A DNA stretch of 64,000 nucleotides from Candidatus Rokuibacteriota bacterium (GCA_016184125.1 JACPDG010000057.1:11485-75484); one strand, 5' to 3'. Positions 6,776 through 36,046 are shown, counted from the first letter of the stretch. The notes: generated from the sequence alone by a model not told the origin. Translations and numbers: made by a program.

Positions 6776-8578
6776 TCATCCCGCCGCTTCGAGGAGCAAC
6801 ACTTGCCAGGGCCCGAGCGGATCGCGCTCGCCGGGGCCCGCGAACCGCGGGTCCGCGCTGTCGATCAACACGCGCCACGCCGGCGCGCTCAGCGAGGCCG
6901 GAAGTCGGCGGCGCTCGCCGGTGAGGTTCGCGACGAGCCTCACCTGCTCGCCGCCCGGGCCGAGCCGCGAGACCGTCAGCACCGCATCGTCCTCGTCCAG
7001 CACCGCCGTCGTCCGCTGCTTGCCACGGCTGCCGAGGGCCGGGTGGGTCCTGCGGAGCGCCAGCCATGCGCGATAGTAGTCACGCAGCTCCCGGTGGCGC
7101 GGAGCGGAGGCGAGCGCGTGGCTCAGGCGCGACCTCACGAACGTCGCCGGATCTCCGGGATCCGGAATCGTTCCCTGCCACGCGAACCGGCTGAACTCGG
7201 CCGCACGGCCGCGGCGCACGGCGTCCATGAGCTCGCGGTCGAGGAACGAGGTGAAGAACTGGAACGGCGCGGTCTCGCCGTACTCCTCTCCCATGAAGAG
7301 CAGCGGAATCGCGGGCACCGAGCACAGCATCGCGACAACCGCCTTGACCGCGTCGAACGGGACGATGCTGCCGAGCCGATCCCCGTGCGCCCGGTTGCCG
7401 ACCTGGTCGTGGTCCTGGAGGAACACGACGAAGTGCTCGCCGTCGAGGTCGGCGCTCGGCGTCCCGCGCAGGCAGCCGAAGTACTCCGAGCGTTGCCCCT
7501 GGAACGCGAACCCCTCGGCGATCGCCTTCGGCAGGAGCGAGGGATCCGTGAAGTCGGCGTAATACCCTACGCGCTCGCCGGTGAGCCTGACGTGCGCCGC
7601 GTGATGGAAGTCGTCGGACCAGACCGCATCGAGCCCGAGGCCGCCGGCCTCCCGGGGCAGGACGAGCTTCCGGTCGTTGTCGTGCGACTCGGCGATGACG
7701 TGGAAGGGGCGTCCGAGCTGCCGCGCCTCGGCGCGGCCCGCCTCCGCGAGCTCGGTCAGCACGTGGACCGGGCTCGCGTCGTAGATGGCGTGGACCGCGT
7801 CGAGCCGAAGGCCGTCGATGTGGAACTCGTGGACCCAGTACCGCGCGTTCTCGACGAAGTGACGGCGCACGCCGGCCGCGTCCGGGCCGTCGAAGTTGAC
7901 CGCGCCGCCCCACGGCGTCTTGTAGCGGTTCGTGAAATAGGGGCCGTACTCGCCGAGGTAATTCCCTTCGGGACCCAGATGGTTGTAGACGACGTCGAGG
8001 ACCACCGACAGGCCCATCGCATGGCACGCGTCCACGAGCCGCCGGAGCCCGTGAGGCCCCCCGTACGTCGACTGCGGGGCGTAGAGGTGCACGCCGTCGT
8101 AGCCCCAGTTCCGCGAGCCCGGGAACTCGGCGACGGGCATCAGCTCGACGGCCGTCACGCCGAGGTCCACGAGCGCGCCGAGGTTCCGGATCACGGCTTC
8201 GAACGTGCCGGCCGGCGTGAAGGTGCCCACGTGCAGCTCGTAGAGCACGAGATCGCCGAGCGCGTGGCCGGCGAACGCCTGGTCCGTCCACGCGAGCTCG
8301 TCGGGGTCCACGACCGCGGACGGCCCGTGCACACCTTCCGGTTGCCACCGCGAGACCGGATCCGGACGATAGCGCTCGCCGTCCAGGCGATACTGGTATC
8401 GCGCGCCGGCCGACACGCCGGGCAGCGTCGTCGCGAACCGATCGGCGTCGACGCGCGTGAGCGGGTGCGGCTTCCGTCCATCGACGACGACGTCGACCGT
8501 GCGACAACGGGGCGCCCACACCGTGAACGTCACGCCGCCGGCATGACGGCTTGCACCGAGTCGATTCATACGGTCCAA
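6776..8578 (-). CDS. treZ: Malto-oligosyltrehalose trehalohydrolase (GH13)
   Basis: N-terminal CBM48-like VTFTVWAPRCRTVDVVVDG and GH13 motifs (VVLDVVYNHLGPEGNYL, GLRLDAVHAI, MGEEYGE), about 590 aa. Clustered with treY. Confidence 0.8.
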   Translation of the reverse strand: MDRMNRLGASRHAGGVTFTVWAPRCRTVDVVVDGRKPHPLTRVDADRFATTLPGVSAGARYQYRLDGERYRPDPVSRWQPEGVHGPSAVVDPDELAWTDQAFAGHALGDLVLYELHVGTFTPAGTFEAVIRNLGALVDLGVTAVELMPVAEFPGSRNWGYDGVHLYAPQSTYGGPHGLRRLVDACHAMGLSVVLDVVYNHLGPEGNYLGEYGPYFTNRYKTPWGGAVNFDGPDAAGVRRHFVENARYWVHEFHIDGLRLDAVHAIYDASPVHVLTELAEAGRAEARQLGRPFHVIAESHDNDRKLVLPREAGGLGLDAVWSDDFHHAAHVRLTGERVGYYADFTDPSLLPKAIAEGFAFQGQRSEYFGCLRGTPSADLDGEHFVVFLQDHDQVGNRAHGDRLGSIVPFDAVKAVVAMLCSVPAIPLLFMGEEYGETAPFQFFTSFLDRELMDAVRRGRAAEFSRFAWQGTIPDPGDPATFVRSRLSHALASAPRHRELRDYYRAWLALRRTHPALGSRGKQRTTAVLDEDDAVLTVSRLGPGGEQVRLVANLTGERRRLPASLSAPAWRVLIDSADPRFAGPGERDPLGPWQVLLLEAAG

Positions 8579-8684
8579 TTGGTCACACCATGTGCGACGG
8601 CGGGGGCTGCATGAGTGCCCGCGGGCGCCGTTGAGACGTCAGAGGAACCGCACTCCCGGCCCGGCTCATGAAAGGTACTCGCTG

Positions 8685-10379
8685 ATGCCCTCTTCGTTCT
8701 CACTGGTCCTTCACACCCATCTTCCGATGGTGGTCAATCACGGACGTTGGCCGCACGGCAGCGACTGGCTCAACGAGGCGGCGTTCGAGTGCTACCTGCC
8801 GCTCCTGGAGGCGATCCACCGGCTCGTCGCCGACGGGATCTCTCCCAAGTGGACGATCAACATCTCGCCGATCCTCGCCGAGCAGCTCGCGTCCCCGGAG
8901 TTCCAGAAGGAGATGTCGTTCTACTACGACAACGTCCGCCGGGCGTGCGTCGACACGCGCGAGCACTTCGCGAATCACGGCCTCGGCGACGTGGCTCGTC
9001 TCACGCACTTCTGGGAAGAGTTCTACGAGCGAATGTGGGAGCTGCATCGGCGCATCGGTGGCGATATTCCGGGCACGTTCGCCGAATTGCAAGCTGCGGG
9101 CCACGTGGAGATCATCACGACCGCCGCCACCCACGGCTACCTGCCCCTCCTCTCGCGCGACGAGTCGATTCACCTCCAGCTCCGGACCGCCATCGAGACG
9201 CACCGGCGGCACTTCGGCCAGGCGCCCCGAGGTATCTGGCTGCCGGAGTGCGCCTACCGCCCGCGCTACGAGTGGACGCCGCCGACGGGCCGCGACCGTG
9301 AGCGCTTCATGCGGCCCGGCCTCGAGGAGCTGCTCGCGGCCCACGGTCTCGAGTACTTCGTCGCCGACGCGCATCTGCTCGCGGCGGGCGCGCCGATGTT
9401 CCCCTACCGCGAGTACATGGCCTTCCGTCGGGATCTCGGCGGTCCGTCATCGGCGGAGCCGTCGGCGACCGTGCCGCGCTCACCGTACGCGACGTACCGG
9501 ATCAGCTCGCGCGGAGGGACTGGAGAGGCCACGGGGTTCTTCCGCGATCCTCGCACCACGCTCCAGGTGTGGAGCCGCGAGCACGGCTACCCGGGCGACT
9601 TCGCGTATCTCGAGTTCCACAAGAAGCACTTCCCGGGCGGGCTCCGGTTCTGGAAGATCACCGACGCGTCGCGTGACCTCGCGACCAAGGGGGTGTACGA
9701 GCCGGACGCGGCGCGCGCGAAGGTCCGCGAGCACGCGCGGCACTTCGTCGCGCTCGTCAGCGACACGCTCGCCGCGGCCGAGAGCGACGGTCCCGCCGTC
9801 GTCTGCTCCCCGTACGATGCCGAGCTGTTCGGGCACTGGTGGTTCGAGGGTCCGGCGTGGCTCGAGCAGGTCGCCCGGGAGATGGCGAAGAACGGCGTGC
9901 GGCCGATGGCGCTCGGTGAAGCGGTCGCCGCGGTCCCCCCGCGCACGACCATCTCGCTCCCCGAGGGCTCCTGGGGAGAGGGCGGCGACCATCGCGTCTG
10001 GCTGAACGCGGACACGGAGTGGACGTGGGACCGCCTGTACAGCGCGGAAGCCGAGTGGGTCGAGCTGGTCTCGCACGCGGCCGACGCCCACCGGGAGCTC
10101 CGGCGCGCGCTGGCCCAGGCCACGCGCGAGCTGCTGCTGCTCCAGGCCTCCGACTGGCCGTTCCTCATCACGACCGGCTCGGCGCGCGACTACGCCGAGC
10201 GGCGCGTCGCGGAGCACTACGCGGACTTCAAGCGGCTCACGGAGATGGCGAGGCGTCTGCGGGACGGCGAACCGCTGTCGGTCGAGGCGGCCGAGCTCCT
10301 GCGGCGCCTCGAGCGCGAGGACTTCTGCTTCCCCGACCTCGATCCCGCGTGGGGCGTGGCCCGCGGCGCGGCCCGGTGA
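8685..10379 (+). CDS. GH57-family 1,4-alpha-glucan branching enzyme (DUF1957 type)
   Basis: The start is at MPSSFSLVLHTHLP (the GH57 hallmark HTHLP) with an AAAGG-like RBS. WLPECAY and PYDAELFGHWWFEG motifs are present. The upstream part of tool ORF 8592..10379 is taken as leader. Confidence 0.75.
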   Translation: MPSSFSLVLHTHLPMVVNHGRWPHGSDWLNEAAFECYLPLLEAIHRLVADGISPKWTINISPILAEQLASPEFQKEMSFYYDNVRRACVDTREHFANHGLGDVARLTHFWEEFYERMWELHRRIGGDIPGTFAELQAAGHVEIITTAATHGYLPLLSRDESIHLQLRTAIETHRRHFGQAPRGIWLPECAYRPRYEWTPPTGRDRERFMRPGLEELLAAHGLEYFVADAHLLAAGAPMFPYREYMAFRRDLGGPSSAEPSATVPRSPYATYRISSRGGTGEATGFFRDPRTTLQVWSREHGYPGDFAYLEFHKKHFPGGLRFWKITDASRDLATKGVYEPDAARAKVREHARHFVALVSDTLAAAESDGPAVVCSPYDAELFGHWWFEGPAWLEQVAREMAKNGVRPMALGEAVAAVPPRTTISLPEGSWGEGGDHRVWLNADTEWTWDRLYSAEAEWVELVSHAADAHRELRRALAQATRELLLLQASDWPFLITTGSARDYAERRVAEHYADFKRLTEMARRLRDGEPLSVEAAELLRRLEREDFCFPDLDPAWGVARGAAR

Positions 10380-10456
10380 TGGCGACGACACGCGAGAGGC
10401 TCGCGGGCTCCACGCCCGGGGCGGAGCGCGATGCGCTCCCCCCCATGGCAACATAG

Positions 10457-11695
10457 ATGCGGCGACCGAGAGTCCTCGCGATGATCATGGCCGGCGGCAA
10501 GGGCGAGCGCCTGCATCCGCTGACCCGCGACCGCTCGAAGCCGGCGGTGCCCTACGGCGGCCGCTGGCGGATCATCGACTTCGTCCTGTCGAACTTCGCG
10601 AACTCCGAGCTGCTGGCGCTCTACGTCCTCGTGCAGTACAAGTCGCAGTCGCTCATCGAGCACCTGCGGCTCGCCTGGCGTACGGGCGGGGTGCTGCAGG
10701 ACTACTTCGTGACCGTCGTGCCGCCACAGATGCGGTTCGGCCCGGCGTGGTACCGCGGCACGGCGGACGCCGTCTTGCAGAACCTCAACCTCGTCGACGA
10801 CTTCAACCCGGACGTCGTCGCGGTCTTCGGCGCCGACCACATCTACCGGATGGACGTGAACCAGATGGTCGCCTTCCACCACGAATCGGGCGCCGAGGTG
10901 ACGATCGCCGCGCGCCGCGTCGATGTGAAGGAGGCGACCGCCTTCGGCGTGCTCGCCGTGGACCGGCACGCGCGGGTCGCCGAGTGGGAGGAGAAGCCGG
11001 CGCAGCCGAAGCCGACGCCCGACGATCCCGCGAGCGCGCTCGTGTCGATGGGCAACTACCTGTTCAACCGCCGGACGCTCGTGGACGCACTGCTGGCCGA
11101 CGCCCGGCGCTCCACCGACCACGACTTCGGCCGCTCCATCATCCCCGAGCTCGTGCCCGCCGGCCGCGTGTTCGTGTACGACTTCCAGCGCAACGAGGTG
11201 CCGGGCACGAAGCCGTACGAGGAGCCCGGCTACTGGCGCGACGTGGGGACGCTCGAGTCGTACTGGGACGCGCACATGGATCTCCTCGGCGAGTCCCCGC
11301 GCCTCGATCTCGACAACCGCCACTGGCCGATCCGCACCGCCTCGCACCCCGGTCCCGCCGCCCGCTTCATCGGCTCGGACGTGGACAACACGCAGGTCGC
11401 CGAGGGCTCGCTGATCAAGCGCGCCACGCTGAGGAACTCGATCCTCGGCCGGAGCGTCTGGGTGAACGAGGGCGCGGTCATCGAGGACTCGATCATCATG
11501 GACCACACGACCGTCGGGAAGGGGGCGAGGCTACGGCGCGCGATCGTCGACCGGTTCAACATCGTCGCCGCGGACACCGAGATCGGGTTCCATCCGGAGA
11601 CGGACCGCCGGCGGTACCACGTCGACCCGTCGGGGCTCGTCGTCGTCCCGCGCGGAGGCCGCAGGGAGTTCCTGCTCGGCCTCGAAGAGCTGTAG
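10457..11695 (+). CDS. glgC: Glucose-1-phosphate adenylyltransferase
   Basis: LAMIMAGGKGERLHPLT..KPAVPYGG..RIIDFVLSN and a full-length match to GlgC architecture. Confidence 0.9.
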   Translation: MRRPRVLAMIMAGGKGERLHPLTRDRSKPAVPYGGRWRIIDFVLSNFANSELLALYVLVQYKSQSLIEHLRLAWRTGGVLQDYFVTVVPPQMRFGPAWYRGTADAVLQNLNLVDDFNPDVVAVFGADHIYRMDVNQMVAFHHESGAEVTIAARRVDVKEATAFGVLAVDRHARVAEWEEKPAQPKPTPDDPASALVSMGNYLFNRRTLVDALLADARRSTDHDFGRSIIPELVPAGRVFVYDFQRNEVPGTKPYEEPGYWRDVGTLESYWDAHMDLLGESPRLDLDNRHWPIRTASHPGPAARFIGSDVDNTQVAEGSLIKRATLRNSILGRSVWVNEGAVIEDSIIMDHTTVGKGARLRRAIVDRFNIVAADTEIGFHPETDRRRYHVDPSGLVVVPRGGRREFLLGLEEL

Positions 11696-11705
11696 GCCCC
11701 GCGTC

Positions 11706-14096
11706 GTGAGTCACCCGCGCTCGATCATCGTCCACGGGCACTTCTACCAGCCGCCGCGCGAGAACCCATGGCTGGAAGAGGTCGAGGTCCAGGACTCCGC
11801 GGCGCCGGCGCACGACTGGAACGAGCGCGTCACCGCCGAGTGCTACGCGCCGAACACCGCCGCGCGACGCGTGAACGCGCACAACCGCATCCACGACATC
11901 GTGAACAACTTCGAGAAGATCTCGTTCAACGTCGGCCCGACGCTCATGAGCTGGCTCGAGCGGCACGCGGAGGACGTGTACCGCACGATCGTCGAGGCCG
12001 ACCGTGTGAGCGCCCGGGAGCGCGGGCACGGCAACGCGCTCGCGCAGGTCTACAACCACATGATCATGCCGCTCGCCACGCGGCGCGACCAGGTCACCCA
12101 GGTGCGCTGGGGGCTGGCGGACTTCCGCAGCCGCTTCTCACGCGAGGCGGAGGGCATGTGGCTGCCGGAGACCGCCGCCGACAGCGAGACGCTCGAGGTG
12201 CTCGCCGAGCACGGCGTGAAGTTCACGATCCTCGCGCCCAACCAGGCGTGGAGGATCCGGCCCCTCGACCGCGACGCGTGGGTCGAGGTCGGCGATCGGA
12301 TCGACCCGAGCCGGCCGTACCTCTGGCGCAGCCGCCGCGGACACGAGCTGACGCTCTTCTTCTACGACGGCCCCATCTCGCGCGCGATCGCGTTCGAGCA
12401 CCTGCTCGAGCGCGGCGAGACGCTCGTCGCACGGCTCAGGGACGGCTTCTCGGACGCCCGCGACTGGCCGGAGCTCGTGCACGGCGCCACCGACGGCGAA
12501 TCCTACGGTCATCACTCCAAGTTCGGCGACATGGCGCTCGCCGCCGCGGTGCAGCAGATCGAGGCGGAAGGGTTCGCGGATCTCACCAACTACGCCGCGT
12601 TCCTCGCCAAGCACCGGCCCACCTGGGCCGTCGAGATCCGCGAGCGGACGTCGTGGAGCTGCGCGCACGGGGTCGAGCGCTGGCGCGCGGACTGCGGTTG
12701 CCGGGTGAACCCGTCGACGCACCAGCGGTGGCGGGCGCCGCTGCGCGAGGCCCTCGACTGGCTGCGCGACCGGGTCGACGGGTGGTACGAGGCGCGTGCG
12801 GGAGCGCTGTTCCAGGACCCCTGGGCGGCACGCGACGAGTACATCGAGGTCATCCTCGACCGGTCTCCGGCGCGCCTGGCGGAGTTCCTCGGGCGCCATC
12901 AGCGCTCCCCGCTCGACGCGGCGGCCACGCTCGAGGCCCGCCGGCTGCTCGAGATGCAGCGCAACCGCTTGCTCATGTACACCTCCTGCGGCTGGTTCTT
13001 CGACGAGCTCAGCGCGCTCGAGCCGGTCCAGATCTTGAAGTACGCGGCCATCGCGATGCAGGACCTGCGGGACCTCGGCGGCGGTCCCCTCGAGCCGGAG
13101 CTCCTCCGGCGGCTCGAAGTCGCGCCGACGAACGTCCGCGAGTTCCGCGACGGCGCCGACGTCTGGCGCCGCCTCGTCCGCCCCGTCGCCGTCGACCTCC
13201 GCCGGGTCGTCGCGCACTATGCCATCAGCGGTCTCCTCGAGGACTACCCGGACGACATGCGGATCTACGCGTTCCGGGTGCGCCGGCTGGACGAAGTCGG
13301 CGAGTCGTACGCCGGCACGGCGCTCCGGATCGCGCACGTCCGCGTCAGCTCGGAGATCACCGGCGACACGAAGGAGCAGATGTACGCCGTGCTGCACTTC
13401 GGCGGGCACGACTTCTCGTGCGGCGTGAGGGCGTGGGAGGACCGGGTCACGTACGACGAGATGAAGGCGCAGCTCACGAGCCGGTACGCGCGCTTCTCGA
13501 TGGCCGACATGGTCCGGGCGATGGACGACTGGTTCCCGGGCCAGTCGTTCTCGCTCCCGCACCTCTTCCTCGAGGAACGGCGCCGCGTCCTCGCGAACGT
13601 CACGCGGGCGGTGCTCGACAAGCACGAGGAGGCGTACCGGCGGATCTGGGACGAGAGCCGCAAGCTCGTGCACTACCTCCGGCAGGCCGATGCGCCGATC
13701 CCCGAGGCGCTCAGGATCGTCGCGCGGCACGTCCTCGAGGAGGAGGCGCGCGCATTGCTCGCGACGGTGCCCCAGGCGCGCGCGATCCCGCACACCCTGT
13801 TCGAGCTCGTCGACGAGGCCCAGGCGCTCGGGCTCACCCTCGACCTCACCCCCGCGCGACCGGCGATGCACGAGGCCGTCCGCACCGCGCTCGCCGCCGT
13901 GGCCGAGGTGCCGCGGCCCGAACGCGCGGCCGACGCCCTCGCGCTCGTGTCCGGCGCTCAGCAGCTCGGTGTGCGGTTCGGCCTCTGGGCGGTCCAGAAC
14001 CAGTTCTTCGACATCTGGCGCGCGCGGCCCGGCGACCGACTGGTGCTGCAACCGCTCGCGCTCGCCCTCGGCTTCGAGCTGCCGCTGACGCCGTGA
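11706..14096 (+). CDS. GH57-family glycoside hydrolase with DUF3536 C-terminal domain
   Basis: N-terminal IIVHGHFYQPPREN..NVGPTLMSWLE (GH57). A long C-terminal extension, 796 aa in total. It ends with TGA overlapping the treY GTG (GTGA). Confidence 0.75.
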   Translation: MSHPRSIIVHGHFYQPPRENPWLEEVEVQDSAAPAHDWNERVTAECYAPNTAARRVNAHNRIHDIVNNFEKISFNVGPTLMSWLERHAEDVYRTIVEADRVSARERGHGNALAQVYNHMIMPLATRRDQVTQVRWGLADFRSRFSREAEGMWLPETAADSETLEVLAEHGVKFTILAPNQAWRIRPLDRDAWVEVGDRIDPSRPYLWRSRRGHELTLFFYDGPISRAIAFEHLLERGETLVARLRDGFSDARDWPELVHGATDGESYGHHSKFGDMALAAAVQQIEAEGFADLTNYAAFLAKHRPTWAVEIRERTSWSCAHGVERWRADCGCRVNPSTHQRWRAPLREALDWLRDRVDGWYEARAGALFQDPWAARDEYIEVILDRSPARLAEFLGRHQRSPLDAAATLEARRLLEMQRNRLLMYTSCGWFFDELSALEPVQILKYAAIAMQDLRDLGGGPLEPELLRRLEVAPTNVREFRDGADVWRRLVRPVAVDLRRVVAHYAISGLLEDYPDDMRIYAFRVRRLDEVGESYAGTALRIAHVRVSSEITGDTKEQMYAVLHFGGHDFSCGVRAWEDRVTYDEMKAQLTSRYARFSMADMVRAMDDWFPGQSFSLPHLFLEERRRVLANVTRAVLDKHEEAYRRIWDESRKLVHYLRQADAPIPEALRIVARHVLEEEARALLATVPQARAIPHTLFELVDEAQALGLTLDLTPARPAMHEAVRTALAAVAEVPRPERAADALALVSGAQQLGVRFGLWAVQNQFFDIWRARPGDRLVLQPLALALGFELPLTP

Positions 14097-16972
14097 GCAG
14101 CCTGAACCGTCTTCGCAGCGAGCCCGACGCGCTGCGCCGGGTCCCGGTGGCGACCTACCGCTTGCAGCTCTCGCCCGATCTCGACTTCGACGCGGCCGCA
14201 TCCCTCGTCGACTACCTCGATGCCCTCGGCGTGACCGACGTCTACACGTCGCCGTTCTTCGAGACCGCGTCGGACGCCTCGCACGGCTACGACGTCAGCG
14301 ACCACGGGCGACTGCGGGACGAGCTCGGCGGCGAGGCGGCCTTCGCACGGGTTGCCGACGCGCTCAAGCGCCGCGGCCTCGGTCTGCTCGTGGACCTGGT
14401 GCCGAACCACATGGGCATCGCACGCGCGAGGAACGCGTGGTGGCGCGACGTGCTGGAGAACGGGCCGTCGTCGGCCTATGCCTCGGTGTTCGACATCGAC
14501 TGGGACCCGGTGAAGCCGGAGCTGCACGGCAAGGTGCTGCTGCCGATCCTCGGCGACCAGTACGGCGCCGTCCTCGACTCCGGCCGGCTGAGCCTCGAGC
14601 TCGATGACGGGCTGTTCTGGGTGCGCTACTACGAGACGCGGCTGCCGGTGGCGCCACCGACGTACGGCCGCGTGCTGAGCCACGGGATCGAGGAGCTCCA
14701 GAGCAGGCTCGGCGCCGAGCACCCCGCCATCGTCGAGCTCAAGAGCGTCATCACCTGGTTCGCCACGATTCCGCCGCCCCACGCCGGCGATCCGGGACGG
14801 CTGGCCGCGAGCGCCGACCACAAGGAATCGGGCCGGCAGCGCCTCGTCCGCCTGCTCGCCAAGTGGCCGGACGTCCGCGCGTTCCTCGAGGACACCGTCC
14901 GGCGCTTCAACGGCACGCCGGGCGATCCGCGGAGCTTCGACCTGCTCGACGCGCTCCTCGGCGATCAGGCGTACCGGCTGGCGTACTGGCGAGTGGCCGG
15001 CGAAGAGATCAACTACCGGCGCTTCTTCGACATCAACGACCTCGCGGCGATCCGGGTGGAGGAGCCGCGCGTGTTCGCGGAGACGCACCGCCTCGTCCTT
15101 CGCCTCGTCGGTGACGGCACGGTGACCGGCCTGCGCGTCGACCATCCCGACGGGCTCTACGCTCCGGCCGAGTACTTCCGCCGGCTGCAGGAGGGGTGCC
15201 TCGAGGCGACCGGCGGCAGCGGGGAGGCGCCACGCCCGTTCTACATCGTCGCGGAGAAGATCCTGTCGCCCGGCGAGCGGTTGCCGGACACGTGGGCGGT
15301 CGCCGGCACGACCGGCTACGACTTCCTGAACCTGGTCAACGGCATCTTCGTCGATCGCCGCCAGGCGCGGGCCCTCGAGCAGCTCTACACGCGCCTGACC
15401 CACGAGCGGGTCTCGTTCGCGGAGATCGTCTACACCGCGAAGCGCGTCATCATGGAGACGTCGATGGCGTCCGAGCTCAACATGCTCGGTCACCGGCTCA
15501 ACCGCATCTCGGAGAAACACCGGTCGTCGCGTGACTTCACGCTGCGCAGCCTCATCCGGGCGCTCCGGCAGATCATCGCGTGCTTCCCGGTCTACCGGAC
15601 GTACTTCGGCGACGAGGGCGACGAGACCCACGATCGCGCGACCCTCGAGCGGGCGGTCGAGCTCGCGAAGCGGCGCCACCCGGGCGTCGATGCCTCCGTC
15701 TACGACTGGATCCACCGGCTGCTCGCGCTGGAGCTCCCGCCGTGGGCCGGCGAGCAGGACCGTCGCGAGCGGCTCGACTTCGTGATGCGATTCCAGCAGA
15801 TCACGGGTCCCGTGACGGCGAAGGGCTACGAGGACACCGCGCTCTACCGCTATCACCGCCTCGTCTCGCTGAACGAGGTCGGCGGCGATCCGAGCCGCTT
15901 CGGCACGTCGATCGCCGAGTTCCACGCCGCGATGCGCGAGCGGCAGGCGGATGCCCCGGCCGGGCTTTCGACGACGGCGACCCACGACACCAAGCGCGGC
16001 GAGGACGTGCGGGCGCGGATCAACGTCCTCTCCGAGATCCCGGCGGAGTGGCGCCGCCGCGTCGCCCGGTGGCAGCGCCTGAACCGCCGGCACCGCACGG
16101 TGGTCGACGGGCGGCCGGTCCCCGGGCCGACCGAGGAATACCTCATCTACCAGACGCTCGCCGGCGCCTGGCCGATCACCGCGGAGCGCGTGCGGGCGTA
16201 CGTCGTGAAGGCGATGCGCGAGGCGAAGAGCTCGACGAGCTGGATCACCCAGAACGAGCGGTACGAAGAGGCGATGCTCCGGTTCACGGACACCGTGCTC
16301 GACCGGCGCCGGTCGCGCGAGTTCCTCCGCGACCTGGGCGAGTTCCAGGAGCGCGTGGCGCACTTCGGACGGCTCAACGGCCTCGCGCAGGTGCTCGTGA
16401 AGATCGCCGCGCCGGGTGTTCCCGACTTCTACCAGGGCACGGAGCTGTGGGACCTGGCGCTCGTGGACCCCGACAACCGGCGTCCCGTCGACTTCGCCCT
16501 GCGCCGGCGGCTGCTCGACGAGCTGGCGATGGAGATCGAGACGACGAGCGACCTGTCGGCGCTGGCCCGGCGGCTCGCCGAGACGGCGGCGGACGGTCGC
16601 GTGAAGCTCTACCTGATCCGCCAGGCCCTCGCGTTCCGCCGCCGCCATCGCGGGCTGTTCCTCGCGGGCGCCTACGAGGCGATCGACGCCGCCGGACCGT
16701 GGGCGGACAGCGTGTGCGCCTTCGCGCGCGTGCATGGGCTCGAGGCCGCGCTCGTCGTGGTGCCGCGCCTGCTCGCGTCACGGAGTGCCGACGGCCTGCC
16801 GCTCGGCGAGGCGTTCTGGGAGTCGACGCGCCTCGAGGTGCCGGCGACAGCGCGCGGCGTCTATCGCGATGTCTTCACGGGCCACCGCGTCGAGGTGAGC
16901 TCCGACGGCCTGGTGCCGGTCGCCCACCTCCTCGCCGGCTTTCCCGTGGCCCTGCTCGGACGCGAGCCGTGA
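14093..16972 (+). CDS. treY: Malto-oligosyltrehalose synthase
   Basis: GTG start overlapping the previous stop. ATYRLQLSPDLDFDAAASLVDYLDALGVTDVYTSPFFE..VDLVPNHMG..GLRVDHPDGL are typical TreY motifs. It forms part of a spurious 1734-aa ORF in the same frame upstream. Confidence 0.85.
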   Translation: MSSLNRLRSEPDALRRVPVATYRLQLSPDLDFDAAASLVDYLDALGVTDVYTSPFFETASDASHGYDVSDHGRLRDELGGEAAFARVADALKRRGLGLLVDLVPNHMGIARARNAWWRDVLENGPSSAYASVFDIDWDPVKPELHGKVLLPILGDQYGAVLDSGRLSLELDDGLFWVRYYETRLPVAPPTYGRVLSHGIEELQSRLGAEHPAIVELKSVITWFATIPPPHAGDPGRLAASADHKESGRQRLVRLLAKWPDVRAFLEDTVRRFNGTPGDPRSFDLLDALLGDQAYRLAYWRVAGEEINYRRFFDINDLAAIRVEEPRVFAETHRLVLRLVGDGTVTGLRVDHPDGLYAPAEYFRRLQEGCLEATGGSGEAPRPFYIVAEKILSPGERLPDTWAVAGTTGYDFLNLVNGIFVDRRQARALEQLYTRLTHERVSFAEIVYTAKRVIMETSMASELNMLGHRLNRISEKHRSSRDFTLRSLIRALRQIIACFPVYRTYFGDEGDETHDRATLERAVELAKRRHPGVDASVYDWIHRLLALELPPWAGEQDRRERLDFVMRFQQITGPVTAKGYEDTALYRYHRLVSLNEVGGDPSRFGTSIAEFHAAMRERQADAPAGLSTTATHDTKRGEDVRARINVLSEIPAEWRRRVARWQRLNRRHRTVVDGRPVPGPTEEYLIYQTLAGAWPITAERVRAYVVKAMREAKSSTSWITQNERYEEAMLRFTDTVLDRRRSREFLRDLGEFQERVAHFGRLNGLAQVLVKIAAPGVPDFYQGTELWDLALVDPDNRRPVDFALRRRLLDELAMEIETTSDLSALARRLAETAADGRVKLYLIRQALAFRRRHRGLFLAGAYEAIDAAGPWADSVCAFARVHGLEAALVVVPRLLASRSADGLPLGEAFWESTRLEVPATARGVYRDVFTGHRVEVSSDGLVPVAHLLAGFPVALLGREP

Positions 16973-17628
16973 GCGTGCACACCTTCCAGTTCGTCGGGTG
17001 CGTGGAGGTGCGCCAGGCGCTCGACCGTCGCGCGCTCGACGAGCGCGAGCTCATGGACCGTCTCGAGGAGGTGCCGGCCGGGTCGATCGCCTACCACACG
17101 CATGGCTACTTCCTGCGCCACCGGCCGTTCACGACGCCGTACGGCAACGACTTCGCGGCGTGGGTCGCGGTGCACGTGCGCGACCAGGCGCTGGCCGAGC
17201 GCCTGGCCGTGATCAACCCGTTCGAGTTCACGGACGTCGAGGACCTCCGCGAGGAGCTCACCTCGACGATCCACGACCACCTCCTCCGGCTCTCGTCCGT
17301 CCCGCAGGTCGAGTTCGGCGAGCCGTTCTACTTCCAGCAGTCCCACCTGGTGGAGGTGCCGCTCGGACCGGCGTGCACCACGCTCGCAGAGTTCCGCGCG
17401 CAGCTCGGCGAGGTCGAATCGAGCGCGATCTACGTGCACATGGTCGAGGCGCGGACCCGGCTCGGGCGCCGATCCGACGACTTCGCCGAGTGGCTCCGCA
17501 CCTCGCTCGGACTCGCCGATCTCGCCGAGCGCATCGAGCGCATCGACACCTACATGACGAGCCTCGAGCGGGTGCGGGCGCGCATCCTGTCCCTCGTCGA
17601 CGCCGCGCTCGCGGAGCCGCGATCGTGA
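16969..17628 (+). CDS. Conserved hypothetical protein, translationally coupled between treY and treT
   Basis: GTG start overlapping the treY stop (GTGA), 219 aa, protein-like composition (VSVHTFQFVGCVEVRQALDRRALDEREL..). Its TGA stop overlaps the treT GTG. Confidence 0.5.
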   Translation: MSVHTFQFVGCVEVRQALDRRALDERELMDRLEEVPAGSIAYHTHGYFLRHRPFTTPYGNDFAAWVAVHVRDQALAERLAVINPFEFTDVEDLREELTSTIHDHLLRLSSVPQVEFGEPFYFQQSHLVEVPLGPACTTLAEFRAQLGEVESSAIYVHMVEARTRLGRRSDDFAEWLRTSLGLADLAERIERIDTYMTSLERVRARILSLVDAALAEPRS

Positions 17629-18815
17629 GGCTCGACGACTACCGGGCTGTCGCGCCACGCGGCGCGCTCGACATCATCCACCGGCTCGCCGAGCGCCTCG
17701 CCGGCAGGCGCGTGCTGCACGTGAGCGCGGGGCGGTTCGGGACCGGCTCGGCCGAGATGCTGACCACCGTGGTGCCGCTGATCGCCGACGTGGGGATCGA
17801 GGCGAGCTGGGAGATCACCGGCGGGGATCCGCCGTTCTACGCGACCGCCCGTGCGCTCGGCGCGGCGCTCGAGGGCCGTGAGCGCGTGCTCGACGACGAG
17901 GCGCTCGACCACTACGTCGAGATGAACCGGGTCAACGCGAAGAAGCTGCGCCTCGACGCTGACGTCGTCATCGTGCATGACGTGCAGCCGGCGACGCTCG
18001 TCACGGACCGTCCGGCGGAGGGCCGCTGGCTCTGGCGCTGCCACTTCGACTGCTCGCGGCCGACCCGGCGCGCGTGGTCGTTCATGCGCCGGTTTCTCGG
18101 GCAGTACGACGCCGCCGTGTTCTCGCTGCCGAAGTTCACGCGGCGACTGACGGTCCCCCACTACGTGATCCACCCCGCGATCGACCCGCTGTCGGACAAG
18201 AACCGCGACCTCGGCCCGCTCCAGATCACGCGGCAGCTCGACGCGCTCCGCGTCCCTCGCGACCGGCCGCTCCTGGTGCAGGTCGGTCCCTTCACGCGCG
18301 CCGCCGACCCGCTCGGCGTGGTCAACGCGTACCGGCTCGTGCGGCGCTACCACCACGTGCGGCTGGTCCTCGCCGGGACCGCCGGCGAGGACCAGGAGAG
18401 CGTCGAGGTCCTGGGCGAACTGCGGGAGGTGGCGCAGCACGACCCGGACGTGATCGTGCTCGAGCTGCCGCCGGAGGCGCACCTGCAGATCAACGCGCTC
18501 CAGCGGGCCGCGACGATCGTCCTCCAGAAGTCGCTGCGCGAGGGGTTCGGTCTCGGGGCGGCCGAGGCGATGTGGAAGGGCAAACCCGTCATCGGCGGCT
18601 CTGCAGGCGGGTTGACGCAGCAGATCATCTACGACGTCACCGGGTACACCGTCCACTCGGTGGACGGTGCCGCCTTCCGCATCCGCCACCTGCTCAACCA
18701 CCCGGAGCTGATCGCCCGCATGGGCGCGGCGGGCCGCGAGCACGTGCGGCGCTCGTTCCTCGCGACGCGCCACCTGACCGACTCCCTGGCGTTGCTGATC
18801 CACGTGATGCGATGA
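17625..18815 (+). CDS. treT: Trehalose glycosyltransferring synthase (GT4)
   Basis: WLWRCHFD, IDPLSDKN and REGFGLGAAEAMWKGKPVIGGSAGG closely match archaeal and bacterial TreT. About 396 aa from the GTG start. Confidence 0.8.
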   Translation: MRLDDYRAVAPRGALDIIHRLAERLAGRRVLHVSAGRFGTGSAEMLTTVVPLIADVGIEASWEITGGDPPFYATARALGAALEGRERVLDDEALDHYVEMNRVNAKKLRLDADVVIVHDVQPATLVTDRPAEGRWLWRCHFDCSRPTRRAWSFMRRFLGQYDAAVFSLPKFTRRLTVPHYVIHPAIDPLSDKNRDLGPLQITRQLDALRVPRDRPLLVQVGPFTRAADPLGVVNAYRLVRRYHHVRLVLAGTAGEDQESVEVLGELREVAQHDPDVIVLELPPEAHLQINALQRAATIVLQKSLREGFGLGAAEAMWKGKPVIGGSAGGLTQQIIYDVTGYTVHSVDGAAFRIRHLLNHPELIARMGAAGREHVRRSFLATRHLTDSLALLIHVMR

Positions 18816-20191
18816 GCGAGCCGAGCGGTGACCGGGCCGAGGGGCCGGCCGCGCCCGAGGGGCGCGCGGCCGCGCCCGAGGGGCGCGCGGCCGCGCCCGA
18901 GGGGCGCGCGGCCGCGCCCGAGGGGCGCGCGGCCGCGCCCGAGGGCGTCGACGACCTCGGGCCGGGAGTCGGGGAGGCGCTGGAGCGCCTGCGGCCACGG
19001 GACCTCGCCGTGGGCATGCTCACGTACAACAACGCGGAGACGGCCGCGGCCGTCGCGCAGAGCGCGGTCCGGGGCATCGAGCAGTATCTTCCCGGCACGT
19101 CGGCGGTGATCCTCAGCGTCGACACCGGGTCCGTGGACGGGACGCCGGACACCCTCGTCGGGCCGTCGGCGGTGCCCGTCGTGTCGATGGTCCACCAGGC
19201 GCGGCTGGCCGAGCGTCTGACCGTCCCGTTCCACGGGGTACCGGGACGCAGCGAAGCGCTGCGCCGAACGCTCGCCGCGTCGCACCGGCTCGGCGCGCGG
19301 GCCCTGGTCCTGCTGGAGGCGGATCTCGCGTCGCCGCCACCCGAGTGGGTGGCGCGCCTGGCGCTGCCGGTGCTCGAAGACAAGGCCGGCTTCGTCGCGC
19401 CGGTCTACGCGCGGCACCGCTACGAGGGGACGATCACGAATCTCCTGCTGGCGCCGCTGATCCGCGCGCTCTACGGGCGCCGTGTCCGGCAGCCGTTCGG
19501 CGGCGAGCAGGCGCTGTCCGGGCGGCTCGTGGACCACCTGCTGATCCACCCGCAGTGGGACTGGCGGAGCGACGATCTGAGCGATGTCTGGGTGCTCGGC
19601 ACGGCCATCGCCGACGGCTTCAGCGTGTGGGAGACCTGGCTCGGCCGCCGGACGATCCGCTCGCGCGCCCGCACCACGGACCTGCCCTCGATGCTCGCGC
19701 AGACGCTCGGCGCCGTCTTCGCCGTCATGCACCGCCACCAGGACCTGTGGCTCGACGTCCGCGGCAGCGAGCCGCTGCCAGAAGTCGGCGAGCGCGTGCT
19801 GCCCGCGGTCGACCCCATCGAGGTCGACGTGCCCCGCATGATCGAGGGCTTTCGCCTGGGTCTCAGGGACCTCGTGCCGATCTGGGAGCACATCCTGGCG
19901 CCGGAGACGCTGGGCGACGTGCTGTCGCTCGAGACGGTCGACCCGGCGGAGTTCCGGTTCCCCGACGACGTGTGGGCGCGCGTCGCCTACGACTTCGCCC
20001 TCGGCTATCACTACGACGTCGTGTACCGCGACCACCTGCTCCGCTCGCTGGCGCCGCTCTACCTGGGCCGCACGGCAGCGTTCGTCCGGCAGACGCAGGG
20101 TCGCAGCGCAGAGGCCACGGAGGCGATGCTGGACGCCGTGGGCGCCGCGTTCGAGCGCCAGAAACCGTACCTGACGGACCGGTGGAGATGA
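18812..20191 (+). CDS. Glycosyltransferase (GT2/GT-A-like) with N-terminal (PEGRAAA)n repeat
   Basis: ATG overlaps the treT stop (ATGA). VGMLTYNNAETAAAV..SVDTGSVDGTPD resembles the GT2 PTYNE...DDGSTD region. The N-terminus is encoded by a perfect 21-bp tandem repeat. The precise family is unknown. Confidence 0.55.
   Translation: MSEPSGDRAEGPAAPEGRAAAPEGRAAAPEGRAAAPEGRAAAPEGVDDLGPGVGEALERLRPRDLAVGMLTYNNAETAAAVAQSAVRGIEQYLPGTSAVILSVDTGSVDGTPDTLVGPSAVPVVSMVHQARLAERLTVPFHGVPGRSEALRRTLAASHRLGARALVLLEADLASPPPEWVARLALPVLEDKAGFVAPVYARHRYEGTITNLLLAPLIRALYGRRVRQPFGGEQALSGRLVDHLLIHPQWDWRSDDLSDVWVLGTAIADGFSVWETWLGRRTIRSRARTTDLPSMLAQTLGAVFAVMHRHQDLWLDVRGSEPLPEVGERVLPAVDPIEVDVPRMIEGFRLGLRDLVPIWEHILAPETLGDVLSLETVDPAEFRFPDDVWARVAYDFALGYHYDVVYRDHLLRSLAPLYLGRTAAFVRQTQGRSAEATEAMLDAVGAAFERQKPYLTDRWR
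18845..18953 (+). repeat. Perfect 21-bp tandem repeat x5 (GCCCGAGGGGCGCGCGGCCGC) encoding (PEGRAAA)n at the N-terminus of the GT2-like gene
   Basis: Four identical 21-bp units plus one variant unit, read directly from the sequence. Confidence 0.9.
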
Positions 20192-22143
20192 AGGACCTCA
20201 AGAAGACCGTGATCATCGAGCACGTGGAACCCACGGTGGACGGCGGCCGCTACCCCGCGAAGCGCGAGGTCGGATGCGTCGTCGAGGTCACCGCGGACAT
20301 CTTCAAGGAGGGCCACGACAAGCTCCTCGCGTGGCTCAAGTACCGCCGCGCCGACGCGAGCGCCTGGGACGAGACCCCCATGCGTTTCGTCGACAACGAC
20401 CGCTGGGCCGGCCGGTTCAAGCTGACGCAGAACACGCGGTACGTGTTCACGATCGAGGCGGTCATCGACGTGTTCGGCTCCTGGCTCGCCGACCTCGAGA
20501 AGCGGCTCGCCGCCCGCCAGCCGGACCTCTCGAGCGAGCTGATCGAAGGCGCGGCCCTCGTCCGCGATGCGCTCCTCCGGGCGCGTGACGAGGACCGCGC
20601 GCGCCTCGAAGCGTACGCGGGCCGCATCGCCGCCACGGCGGACCAGCCGGCCGCCGCGGAGGCGGCGCTCGACCCCGCGCTCACCGTGCTGATGGAGGCG
20701 GCCGTGGACCGGACGGACGCCACGTGGTGCGACCGCGAGTTCGAGATCGTCGCGGACCGCGCGCGCGCGCGCTTCGCCGCCTGGTACGAGTTCTTCCCGC
20801 GCTCGGGGCAGGTTCCCGGGAAGCATGGCACGTTCCGGGACGCCGAGTTCCAGCTTCGCCGCGCCGCCTCCATGGGCTTCGACGTCGTGTACCTGCCACC
20901 GATCCACCCCGTCGGGCGGCGATTCCGCAAGGGCCGCAACAACGCGCTCGAGGCGCAGCCGGACGATCCCGGGAGCGTCTGGGCGATCGGGAGCGAGGAA
21001 GGCGGTCACGCCGCCGTCCATCCGGAGCTCGGGACCATCGAGGACTTCGATGCCTTCGTCGCCACGGCGCGCAGCCTGGGGCTCGAGGTCGCGCTCGACT
21101 TCACCATCCAGGCCTCGCCGGATCACCCGTGGGTCCGAGAGCACCCCGAGTGGTTCTTCCACCGCCCGGACGGCACGATCAAGTACGCCGAGAACCCGCC
21201 GAAGAAATACCAGGACGTGTACCCGCTCAACTTCAGCGGCCGCGACCCGGAGCCGCTCTGGCGGGAGATGCGGCGAGTCCTCGAGTTCTGGATCTCGCAC
21301 GGGGTCAAGAGCTTCCGCGTCGACAACCCGCACACCAAGCCCGTCCGGTTCTGGGAGTGGCTGATCCGGGACATCCAGACCGAGCACCCGGACGTGATCT
21401 TCCTGTCGGAAGCGTTCACGCGGCCGAAGATGATGAAGGTCCTCGCCAAGGCCGGGTTCACGCAGTCGTACACGTACTTCACGTGGCGCAACGAGAAGCA
21501 GGAGCTCATCGACTACTTCACCGAGATCACGTCCCCGCCGGTGAGCGATTACTTCCGCGGCAGCCTCTGGCCGAACACGCCGGACATCCTGCACGAGACC
21601 CTCCAGCGCGGCGGCCGTCCCGCGTTCAAGATGCGGCTCGTGCTCGCCGCCACCCTGTCCTCGCTCTACGGCATCTACTCCGGGTACGAGCTCTGCGAGA
21701 ACGTCCCGCGCGAGCCCGGCTCCGAGGAATACCTGAACTCCGAGAAGTACGAGCTCAAGACCCGGAACTGGCGGGAGCCGGGCAACCTGGTGCAGTTCAT
21801 CACCCGCGTCAACGCGATTCGCCGCGAGCACCCGGCGCTGCAGTGTTACAGCAACCTTCGCTTCTATCCGTCGCTGAGCCCGTCGGTGCTGTGGTACGGC
21901 AAGATGACGCCGGACCGGGACGACGTCGTGCTCGTGGCGGCGAGCCTCGACGTCAGCCAGACGCAGGAGACGCTGGTCGAGGTGCCGCTCGACGAGCTCG
22001 CGATGAGCGAGCACGAGCCGTACCTGATGCATGAGCTGCTGAGCGACAGCACGTGGGAGTGGCGCGGACGCCGCGGCTACGTGAAGCTCGACCCGCACGT
22101 GGACTCCACGCAGATCTTCGCCCTGCGCCGCCTGCGGGGATGA
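20188..22143 (+). CDS. glgE: Alpha-1,4-glucan:maltose-1-phosphate maltosyltransferase
   Basis: ATG overlaps the upstream stop (ATGA). [36 protein letters not shown] are typical of GlgE (GH13_3), about 651 aa. Confidence 0.9.
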
Positions 22144-22207
22144 CGGGGCGACTCCGCACCTCGGCTCCTCCACGCACCCCCGGTGCGGGCGCGCGACACC
22201 CGGGACC

Positions 22208-23874
<1,667 letters not shown>

Positions 23875-23878
<4 letters not shown>

Positions 23879-24230
23879 CATCACGGGGGGACTATCGATG
23901 CCCCCCAAACCCCCCACGCTCGGAGCGCCCCGGCAAAGCCGTGGCGCTCCTCGACCACCGGATTCCTCCACGGACTCTGACATCATGGGGGGCCCCGACT
24001 TGGCCCCCCAACCCCCCCCACGCTCGGCGGCGGCCCGGGGAACCCGGCCCGCCCCTCGGGAATACGATCCGGCCACGGGCTCTGACATCATGGGGGGACT
24101 ACCGATGCCCCCCAAGCCCCCCGCACTCGGAGCCGTCCCGGGGGGTGCGCGGATGCACCCGTGGGGTGCGCGGACGCACCCGGGGAACCCGGGACGGCCC
24201 TCGACCACCGATGCCGTTCACGGGCTCTGA
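23875..24230. repeat. Tandem array of three GC-hairpin repeat units (R2) between treS and mak
   Basis: Three units, each CTGACATCA(C/T)GGGGGG-loop-CCCCCC-AA(A/G)CCCCCC-(A)CGCTCGG-..-CACGG(G/A)CTCTGAC. The third carries two GGGTGCGCGGA(T/C)GCACCC hairpins. Confidence 0.75.
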
Positions 24231-25623
24231 CGCGCTCGCCGCCTGGATCGCCGCACAGCGGTGGTTCGCCGGCAAGACGCGCCGCATCAGCGGGCTCGTC
24301 GTCGAGGACCGGGTGCCGGTCGCGGACGCGAGCGTCCTCGTGGTCGCGGTCGCGCTCGACGACGCGACCACGCAGCGGTACGCCGTGCCGCTCCGCGACG
24401 GACAGGCCATCGCCGACGCGCTCGACGAGGCGAGTTACGGTCGCGCGCTGCTCGACCTGATCGGGCGGGCCGATCGTGCGGCCGGTGAGTCAGGGGAGAT
24501 CGCCGGGCAGCCGACGCGAGCCTTCCCGCGGGATCTGCCTCCCGCCCCATCGGTGCGGCGGCTCGCCGGCGAGCAGAGCAACACCTCGATCGTGCTCGGC
24601 GAGCGTCTCATGCTGAAGCATTTCCGCCGCCTCGTGCCCGGACGCAATCCCGACGAGGAGATCGGCCGCTTCCTGACGGAGCGGACGTCGTTCACGCACG
24701 TCCCGCGGCTCGCCGGGCACCTCGAGTACCGCCGTGGCGCGGAGCGCTCCACGCTGGCCGTGCTGCACGAGCTCGCGACCGGCGCGGAGGACGGGTGGCG
24801 CTGGGTGCTCGACGAGCTGCGCGCCATGTACTCTGGGGTGGCGCCGGCGGCCGGCGAGCCGGACGACGTCGAGCGGCAGGCCGGTCCGACGCTCGACGCG
24901 CTTCGCCAGCTCGGCGCGGTCACCGCCGAGATGCACCTCGCCCTCGCGGGAGGCGTCGCGGATCCCGCGTTCTCACCGGAGCCGATCACGCCGACCGACG
25001 TGGCCGGCTGGTCGCGCGCCGTCGAGCGCCAGCTCGACGAGGCGTCGGGGGTCCTGGAGTCGAGCGGCGCGGCGGATGAGGCGTCCCGGGGAACGCTCGC
25101 GGTCCTGCGCGGCGAGCGTGCCCTGCTCTCCGCGGGGCTGATGGAGCTCGTGGGGCGCACGAAGATCCGCCACCACGGCGACTATCATCTGGGGCAGACG
25201 CTGTACCGGCCGCGCGAGCGGGAGTGGCTCGTGATCGACTTCGAGGGCGAGCCGCTGCGCCCGCTGGCCGAGCGCCGCGCGAAGCACGCGGCGCTCCGCG
25301 ACGTCGCCGGCATGCTGCGCTCGCTCGACTACGCCGCGGTGACCGCGATGCCGGCCGGCCTGGACGTCTGGGCGCGTGCGTGGGAGCGCGCCGCGTCAGC
25401 CGCGTTCGCCGCCGGGTACCGCGAGCGTGCCGCCGGCGCCCCGTTCCTGCCGGTGTCGCCGACGGCGTTCACGTCGGCGGTGGCCGTGTTCCTCGTGGAG
25501 AAGGCCGCGTACGAGGTCGTGTACGAGGCGGCTCACCGGCCCGCGTGGTTGCCGATCCCGCTCGGCGGGCTCACGCGGGCGCTCGCCGCGCTCACTGGCC
25601 GCCCTCGGGCTGGGGCGGCGTGA
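24211..25623 (+). CDS. mak: Maltokinase (maltose 1-phosphate synthase, Pep2/Mak)
   Basis: The N-terminus (AAWIAAQRWFAGKTRRI) and C-terminus (HGDYHLGQTL..IDFEGEP..RDVAGMLRSLDYAA) align with Mak/Pep2. The ATG start lies inside the terminal part of the upstream repeat unit. Confidence 0.8.
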   Translation: MPFTGSDALAAWIAAQRWFAGKTRRISGLVVEDRVPVADASVLVVAVALDDATTQRYAVPLRDGQAIADALDEASYGRALLDLIGRADRAAGESGEIAGQPTRAFPRDLPPAPSVRRLAGEQSNTSIVLGERLMLKHFRRLVPGRNPDEEIGRFLTERTSFTHVPRLAGHLEYRRGAERSTLAVLHELATGAEDGWRWVLDELRAMYSGVAPAAGEPDDVERQAGPTLDALRQLGAVTAEMHLALAGGVADPAFSPEPITPTDVAGWSRAVERQLDEASGVLESSGAADEASRGTLAVLRGERALLSAGLMELVGRTKIRHHGDYHLGQTLYRPREREWLVIDFEGEPLRPLAERRAKHAALRDVAGMLRSLDYAAVTAMPAGLDVWARAWERAASAAFAAGYRERAAGAPFLPVSPTAFTSAVAVFLVEKAAYEVVYEAAHRPAWLPIPLGGLTRALAALTGRPRAGAA

Positions 25624-33475: not shown

Positions 33476-33560
33476 CCGAGCCGCGCCCCGGGTCCCCCGG
33501 GGCGCGTGCGAGCGACCGGGGGGCTTGGGGGGCATCGATAGTCCCCCCATGATGTCAGTG
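33476..33560. repeat. GC-hairpin repeat copy R3 (reverse orientation), overlapping the YHS gene stop
   Basis: ..CCGGGGGGCTTGGGGGGCATCGATAGTCCCCCCATGATGTCAG. Confidence 0.7.
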
Positions 33561-36037: not shown

Positions 36038-36046
36038 CGATCCAGC

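Follow-up and report, generated by a model that had tools for sequence, protein, structure and literature searches.

A conserved trehalose and alpha-glucan operon of Rokubacteria contains a DUF5752-TreT module found across bacterial phyla

Rokubacteria are abundant uncultured bacteria of soil and the subsurface. In a 64,000-nucleotide stretch of DNA from a Candidatus Rokuibacteriota bacterium (GCA_016184125.1 JACPDG010000057.1:11485-75484, hereafter the window, with positions counted from its first letter), we identified a cluster of 11 genes at 6776-25623, comprising the divergent gene treZ and a predicted 10-gene operon that is conserved in Rokubacteria. Together, these genes probably encode a closed cycle between trehalose and alpha-glucan. 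Embedded in the operon is a separate module of three genes, encoding a DUF5752 protein, the trehalose synthase TreT, and a protein resembling glycosyltransferases (GTs) of the GT-A fold, and its core pair, DUF5752-treT, is kept across phyla. Every enzyme family in the cluster is already known, and this is not a categorically new system. What is new is the combination, in one conserved operon, of trehalose entry by TreT and branching by an enzyme of glycoside hydrolase family 57 (GH57) without GlgA or GlgB; the coupling of DUF5752 to TreT across phyla, with fusions to MscS channels and maltokinase; a third partner, GT81-like, whose catalytic network varies; and the finding that TreT is not rare in uncultured bacteria.

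Genes were called from third-codon-position GC and start-codon inspection and identified with Pfam and NCBIfam, as the window has a GC content of ~70% and raw lists of open reading frames (ORFs) are swamped by spurious frames. All 11 genes listed in a first-pass annotation of this DNA were recovered, with their order and coordinates, and family matches confirmed the identities behind its TreY/TreZ, TreT, and TreS routes, its TreS-Mak-GlgE set, and GlgC. Divergent from the other genes, on the minus strand, is treZ (6776-8578), encoding a GH13 malto-oligosyltrehalose trehalohydrolase with CBM_48, Alpha-amylase, and DUF3459 domains (TIGR02402, 695 bits; cutoff 539). The 10 co-directional genes on the plus strand begin with a GH57 alpha-1,4-glucan branching enzyme (8685-10379; Glyco_hydro_57 and BE_C domains), followed by glgC, encoding glucose-1-phosphate adenylyltransferase (10457-11695; NF002023, 561 bits; cutoff 458), a 796-aa protein combining GH57 with DUF3536 (11706-14096; DUF3536 E 1e-103, GH57 E 5e-17), and treY, encoding malto-oligosyltrehalose synthase (14093-16972; TIGR02401, 983 bits; cutoff 499). 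Next come the 219-aa DUF5752/OrfY-family protein (16969-17628; PF19027 E 7e-60), the trehalose glycosyltransferring synthase TreT of family GT4 (17625-18815; TreT_GT1 and Glycos_transf_1 domains), and the 459-aa GT-A-like protein (18812-20191; a GT81-like domain, with GpgS, NF010496, as the sole NCBIfam match). The operon closes with glgE, encoding maltose-1-phosphate maltosyltransferase (20188-22143; GlgE_dom_N_S E 9e-47, GLGE_C E 1e-19, Alpha-amylase), treS, encoding trehalose synthase or maltose alpha-D-glucosyltransferase (22208-23878; TIGR02456, 924 bits; cutoff 678), and the maltokinase gene mak, or pep2 (24211-25623; Mak_N_cap; TIGR02457, 345 bits; cutoff 375). TreZ, GlgC, TreY, and TreS are thus assigned above curated cutoffs, and the branching enzyme, TreT, GlgE, and Mak by strong matches to domains or structural homologues.

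Five consecutive junctions, from the GH57-DUF3536 gene through glgE, overlap by 4 bp, as expected of an operon. The divergent intergenic region between treZ and the operon (8579-8684) presumably holds the promoter and regulatory sites; no sigma-70-like site was found in it, and a promoter scan returned 0 promoter-like sites, a scan that is uninformative in DNA of 70% GC. Terminator-like sites did not exceed chance expectation in a scan that is equally uninformative at this GC content, and no Rfam family was detected within 6000-27000. The ORF of the branching enzyme opens at 8592, and we placed its start at ATG 8685, with homologue alignments opening at ORF residues 27-32. The start of glgE was set at ATG 20188 by start-codon inspection and that of mak at ATG 24211, where its homologue alignments open. 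A 560-aa mak ORF from 23941 was rejected because homologues align only from 24211 and the DNA upstream is repetitive, as was a shorter start at 19016 for the GT-A-like gene because the conserved stretch RLRPRDLAV lies upstream of it. By 100% identity of their products to proteins of a Candidatus Rokubacteria metagenome-assembled genome, the DUF5752 gene corresponds to locus tag HYU51_11695 and the GT-A-like gene to HYU51_11705.

To place the cluster among other genomes, we scanned one genome per species with a nine-sequence DUF5752 alignment, which yielded 80 loci, and located the 11 window proteins on them by tblastn. The full order, treZ(-)/GH57 branching enzyme/glgC/GH57-DUF3536/treY/DUF5752/treT/GT-A-like/glgE/treS/mak, is present in about 30 other species-level genomes of Rokubacteria and Methylomirabilota, so the arrangement is not a product of chance. 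Other loci carry related orders. A second clade has otsA-otsB-DUF5752-treT-GT-A-like-treS-mak; Nitrospira have DUF5752-treS-treT-GT-A-like-(short MscS transmembrane protein)-glgE-mak-glgB; and Thermodesulfobacteriota/Syntrophaceae have glgB-treZ-GH57-DUF3536-treY-DUF5752-treT-mscS-glgC. This recurrence across loci indicates that the cluster is real, under selection, and modular.

On the glucan side, the cluster encodes all four activities of the GlgE pathway, namely TreS, Mak, GlgE, and branching, the last through a GH57 rather than a GH13 enzyme, and both enzymes of the TreY/TreZ pathway pass their equivalog cutoffs. The branching enzyme has the marks of its family: a GH57 catalytic domain, a BE_C domain, and both catalytic motifs, WLPECAY with the nucleophile Glu and PYDAELFGHWW with the acid/base Asp (motif PYDxELFGHWW). 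It aligns at 416 bits with the solved GH57 structures 3n8t, 3p0b, and 5wu7, the Thermococcus, Thermus, and Pyrococcus branching enzymes. The first-pass annotation had noted that neither glgA nor a GH13 glgB lies in the cluster, and this extends further: no glgA, glgB, glgX, glgP, or otsAB domain was found among the ORFs scanned across the 64-kb window. Of the classical GlgC-GlgA-GlgB pathway, GlgC alone was found in these ORFs, without GlgA (GT5) or GlgB (GH13_9). The proposal that the GH57 enzyme sits in GlgB's place also holds up, since syntenic clusters in other phyla carry GH13 glgB, after mak in Nitrospira and before treZ in Thermodesulfobacteriota (770 bits to NF003811 for the GlgB of locus L067). 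Judged from these sequences, the GH57 enzyme is a plausible non-orthologous displacement of GH13 GlgB.

The second GH57 protein, with DUF3536, retains the GH57 catalytic motifs HGHFYQPP, WLPET, and TDGESYGHH, and it matched no relative in NCBIfam or the PDB. Its gene lies between treZ and treY in two other loci (L067 and L068), and in another (L057) glgX adjoins treZ. The protein thus occupies the position of TreX, and it may have a TreX-like role, such as debranching, trimming, or amylase activity.

TreT combines the TreT-specific N-terminal domain (PF21269, E 9e-39) with a GT-B C-terminal domain (PF00534), and it aligns with two solved TreT structures over most of its length, 6zj4 (329 bits over residues 13-393) and 2x6q (280 bits over residues 2-390). 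The first-pass annotation had described TreT as rare in bacteria, a view that is outdated. DUF5752-TreT pairs were found in Rokubacteria, Nitrospira, NC10, Elusimicrobia, Omnitrophica, Thermodesulfobacteriota, and others, and treT is present in nearly every DUF5752 locus examined, in a family that counts 752 representatives at 50% clustering.

The gene between treY and treT, previously listed as hypothetical, is not anonymous. Its product matches PF19027 (DUF5752) at 202 bits against a gathering cutoff of 23, and it is related to a solved structure, PDB 4CSO, named OrfY (E 2.3e-16 for the window protein, E 8e-50 for a profile of 44 DUF5752 members). The protein is an internal duplication, with N- and C-halves that align at an HHalign probability of 99.8% (E 6e-29). 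In each half, His and Trp are invariant and Asp-Phe is nearly so (H43/D61/F62/W65 and H157/D171/F172/W175), and both sets are present in 4CSO as well. In the literature searched, there was no mention of DUF5752 and nothing joining OrfY with Thermoproteus tenax or trehalose, and the CASP11 paper does not mention OrfY. A 2008 study by Kouril and co-workers reportedly describes orfY as co-transcribed with treT in T. tenax.

Of the 82 loci with sufficient sequence, 81 have treT downstream of DUF5752, the aligned ends lying a median of 18 bp apart, and in the five Nitrospira loci treS stands between the two. The same pairing recurs in Elusimicrobia, Omnitrophica, and other metagenomic lineages, with otsA, otsB, and mscS as neighbours. 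Additionally, DUF5752 is found as a C-terminal fusion on MscS channels, where it comes right behind the beta-domain, and on full-length maltokinase. In the MscS fusions (metagenome contigs L081-L083 and L089; P0493-P0496, P0501, P0502, P0504), no MS_channel_3rd domain was detected. Each of these fusions is encoded immediately before treT, and the surrounding clusters further contain a TetR regulator, a second full MscS, otsA, a Usp protein, and DUF1646. The sole locus without treT after DUF5752 (L079, 4136-6148) comes from a metagenome-assembled genome of Proteobacteria, in which ~1.3 kb containing nothing but short ORFs (112-142 aa) separates treY-DUF5752 from glgC downstream.

The fusions to MscS and maltokinase fit a regulatory domain that binds a ligand or a protein better than one that binds DNA, and the recurring linkage to MscS suggests osmotic control. 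Most likely, DUF5752 is a regulatory partner of TreT that binds a ligand or a protein and would tie trehalose synthesis to the osmotic state of the cell. Counting against this, the 4CSO entry bears its depositors' name "OrfY protein, transcription factor", and if that label holds, the target of DUF5752 would be DNA and not TreT. A small protein encoded beside its target genes is also typical of local regulators. We nevertheless consider it unlikely that DUF5752 is a transcription factor for the trehalose genes: C-terminal fusion to a channel, after its beta-domain, or to a kinase would be odd for a DNA-binding domain; the gene sits in mid-operon with 4-bp overlaps on both sides; and Pfam detected neither a helix-turn-helix nor any other DNA-binding domain in the protein. 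A more elaborate form of the partner reading, which we regard as speculative and improbable, would have DUF5752 sense trehalose, itself a twofold-symmetric molecule, or another osmotic signal and act on three effectors, with the GT81-like protein as a pseudo-glycosyltransferase subunit of TreT. The effectors may be TreT, with DUF5752 as a free-standing partner, and the cytoplasmic cage of MscS and maltokinase, each through a C-terminal fusion. If so, the size of the trehalose pool would be coupled to the synthesis of trehalose, its release, and its conversion to glycogen.

The third member of the module, the GT-A-like protein, carries APEGRAA repeats at its N-terminus, followed by a GT81-like domain and, at the C-terminus, a well-conserved helical domain of ~130 aa. 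In 62 of 74 loci, its gene comes after treT. In the otsA-otsB-DUF5752-treT-GT-treS-mak clusters, it is present with no glgE, glgC, or GH57 gene within the flank examined. As the gene tracks treT even where this flank has no glucan genes, it belongs to the TreT module and not to the GlgE/GlgC part of the operon. Recognizable relatives of the protein are distant. It scores 34 bits against the GpgS equivalog NF010496, well below the cutoff of 262; among PDB chains, the family profile matches none but GpgS (E 3e-6), with the match confined to the N-terminal ~190 residues; and some family members reach the MGS GT domain and Glycos_transf_2. A Foldseek search with a low-confidence model ranked GpgS and MpgS at the top, at non-significant values (E 0.02, TM ~0.3). 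The N-terminal repeats are encoded by a perfect tandem repeat of 21 bp in 4.8 copies near the 5' end of the gene (18846-18945, plus strand; Tandem Repeats Finder score 200, 100% matches). The N-termini of homologues are variable and non-repetitive, so this repeat is probably recent and variable in length.

Residue roles in GT81 are known from Mycobacterium tuberculosis GpgS, with Asp134-x-Asp136, Lys114, and Glu232 as key positions, and the Asp-Lys-Glu network has been called strictly conserved in retaining GT-A enzymes (PMC2581804). At the Lys114 position, the GT-A-like family has an invariant Arg (Arg146 in the window protein). The Asp134-x-Asp136 position reads E-x-D in 56 of 57 Rokubacteria copies (E169-A-D171 in the window protein), E-G-N in all five Nitrospira copies, and S-G-N in the NC10 copy. 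Glu is found at the Glu232 position in the window protein only; all 64 homologues examined have Q, A, P, S, T, G, C, or H there. Across 13 aligned orthologues, the GT-A domain has no invariant acidic residue, and it is less conserved than the C-terminal helical domain (59% vs 74% in Rokubacteria and 38% vs 52% in Nitrospira). The PG[RK]G and PLGG motifs are kept in the Rokubacteria proteins. In the GRVTEL motif of GpgS, the first residue of which aligns with a Thr in the window protein, the Arg presumably binds the phosphate of the acceptor.

Taken together, these features suggest that the GT-A-like protein is an accessory of TreT, either as a GT81-type enzyme that uses a nucleoside diphosphate (NDP)-glucose or as a non-catalytic partner, and we hold these two alternatives to be possible but tentative in like measure. 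As an active glucosylglycerate synthase, the protein would join ADP-glucose with D-glycerate to form glucosylglycerate, in which case the ADP-glucose from GlgC would feed the synthesis of two compatible solutes by the operon, trehalose and glucosylglycerate. Many close homologues are named "glucosylglycerate synthase" by JGI, and the only detectable relatives are GT81 GpgS/MpgS, plus the MGS GT domain for some members. The E-x-D of Rokubacteria, the Arg aligned with Lys114, the PG[RK]G and PLGG motifs, and the Glu of the window protein at the Glu232 position all agree with such an activity, and the Thr in the GRVTEL motif would fit a non-phosphorylated acceptor, given the role we assume for the Arg. 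Set against this are the lack of Glu at the Glu232 position in all 64 homologues, the replacement of the metal-binding motif in Nitrospira and NC10, and the weaker conservation of the GT-A domain compared with the helical domain. In favour of a pseudo-glycosyltransferase that would bind TreT and activate or regulate it, a network described as strictly conserved (PMC2581804) is not kept across the family, no acidic residue of the GT-A domain is invariant, and the C-terminal domain is the best conserved part. The strict adjacency to treT points the same way, and there is a precedent in T. tenax, in which a GT-like activator of trehalose synthase is encoded in an operon with a piece of MscS (PMC3634074); in Nitrospira, a gene for the MscS transmembrane region alone comes directly after the GT-A-like gene. 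However, the T. tenax activator is a GT4 protein of the GT-B fold and is not homologous, and the E-x-D and nucleotide-binding motifs of Rokubacteria suggest selection for at least the binding of an NDP-sugar.

A third role, put forward in the first-pass annotation, had this GT2-like protein stand in for GlgA, priming or elongating alpha-glucan and making the cluster a self-contained unit for glycogen synthesis. The absence of glgA from the cluster and from the window ORFs scanned would leave room for it, and in mycobacteria, glucosylglycerate from a GT81 enzyme primes the alpha-1,4-glucan MGLP (PMC2581804). The occurrence of the gene, however, follows that of treT and not that of glgE, glgC, or GH57 genes; its relatives are of GT81, with no similarity in Pfam or NCBIfam to glycogen synthases of GT5, GT3, or GT4; and GlgE elongates glucan without GlgA (PMC11206854). 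Because key catalytic positions vary across the family, we do not regard the protein as a GlgA substitute, and this role, the least supported of those considered for it, is very improbable.

The Nitrospira gene mentioned above encodes a 236-aa protein (L077, 14940-15650, plus strand) with only the MscS transmembrane-helix domain PF05552, and an equivalent ORF is present in L070. In L077, it lies ahead of glgE, overlapping the stop of the preceding GT-A-like gene, and it resembles the transmembrane-only MSC of T. tenax.

With these assignments, the probable cycle can be laid out as a whole. GlgC would provide ADP-glucose, which TreT would join to glucose, forming trehalose. TreS, Mak, and GlgE would then carry trehalose through maltose and maltose-1-phosphate to a linear alpha-1,4-glucan, to be branched by the GH57 enzyme in place of GH13 GlgB. 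In the return direction, the GH57-DUF3536 protein at the TreX position, TreY, and TreZ would convert glucan back to trehalose, and DUF5752, possibly together with the GT-A-like protein, would modulate the TreT step. On this reading, ADP-glucose could reach glycogen without GlgA, as in the mycobacterial OtsA/B-TreS-Mak-GlgE route. The direction of flux, like the TreX-like and regulatory roles, is what we infer from the enzymes present.

Several points weigh against this scheme. The branching enzyme scores below lineage-specific NCBIfam equivalogs (510 bits to NF041566, cutoff 920, and 477 bits to another with a cutoff of 1000). TreT reaches 286 bits against the Thermococcales TreT model NF041139, cutoff 775, a shortfall that does not speak against membership in the TreT family, as that model is lineage-specific. 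The enzyme requires free glucose, for which no source was identified, and glgA and glgB could sit elsewhere in the genome, outside the window. The AlphaFold2 models of DUF5752 and the GT-A-like protein, made from shallow alignments, have predicted local distance difference test scores (pLDDT) of 44 and 57, too poor to interpret. More generally, all functions proposed here rest on homology and gene context.

If the cycle operates as proposed, an operon with three trehalose routes that cycle with glycogen points to a central strategy against desiccation and osmotic stress in these bacteria, and it suggests that glycogen can be made without GlgA, with a GH57 enzyme for branching. The comparison of loci also provides the first broad functional context for DUF5752, which is tied to TreT, mechanosensitive channels, and maltokinase across several phyla.

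The treS-mak spacer of 332 bp (23879-24210) holds three tandem units of ~105 bp, each with a hairpin, GGGGGG-ACTAYCGAT-GCCCCCC, right after a TGA. A 35-nt core of this repeat recurs at 33525-33559 (minus strand) and 53597-53631 (plus strand), where chance would predict none. The spacer is absent in relatives, where treS and mak abut, and it therefore looks like an inserted dispersed element resembling repetitive extragenic palindromes (REP) or miniature inverted-repeat transposable elements (MITE). Further along the window, a copper-type P1B ATPase with HMA and E1-E2 ATPase domains (33734-36451, minus strand) adjoins a CsoR-like metal-sensitive repressor and is unrelated to the trehalose cluster. 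A complete rod-shape set, mreB-mreC-mreD-PBP2-rodA, lies at 40149-45484 (minus strand), with an RNase E/G family gene just downstream (38568-40148, minus strand). At 60894-63998 (minus strand), running off the end of the window, a DnaB-type replicative helicase is split by an intein with a LAGLIDADG homing-endonuclease domain.

Among the known systems closest to the cluster are the GlgE clusters of actinobacteria and mycobacteria (treS-pep2(mak)-glgE-glgB), with which it shares TreS, Mak, and GlgE encoded side by side. It also resembles the mycobacterial pathway in the supply of ADP-glucose by GlgC, in trehalose as an intermediate on the way to alpha-glucan, and in the recycling of glucan by TreY/TreZ. 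It differs in that branching falls to a GH57 enzyme instead of GH13_9 GlgB, trehalose entry to TreT (GT4) instead of OtsA/OtsB, and in that no GlgA or GlgM is found in the window; here, moreover, the genes form a single operon that includes DUF5752 and a GT81-like gene. The treZ-treX-treY cluster of Sulfolobus likewise joins TreY and TreZ to an adjoining third glucan-active hydrolase, which there is the GH13 debranching enzyme TreX/GlgX and here a GH57-DUF3536 protein, although GlgX does occur in a related locus.

The module around TreT has its nearest counterparts in T. tenax. The window TreT is of the Thermoproteus type, by its match to 6zj4, and is paired with an OrfY-family protein, reminiscent of the treT-orfY operon reported from that archaeon. 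In the separate msc-gt-tpsp operon of T. tenax, the GT activates TPSP (trehalose-6-phosphate synthase/phosphatase), and the mechanosensitive channel protein (MSC) is transmembrane-only (PMC3634074). The theme of a trehalose synthase with a GT-like protein and an MscS-related protein is common to this operon and the loci described here. The Rokubacteria module belongs to a bacterium, however, with a GT-A/GT81-like partner in place of a GT4 protein and TreT in place of TPSP; the window has no MscS gene, and the module is embedded in a glucan-cycling operon. As for the partner itself, it shares with GT81 GpgS an N-terminal GT-A domain in which the PG[KR]G, DxD-like E-x-D, GxxT, and PLGG motifs align. 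It departs from GpgS in its additional C-terminal helical domain and N-terminal repeats, in a Glu232 equivalent that is variable across the family, and in the change of the metal-binding Asp to Asn in the Nitrospira and NC10 orthologues.

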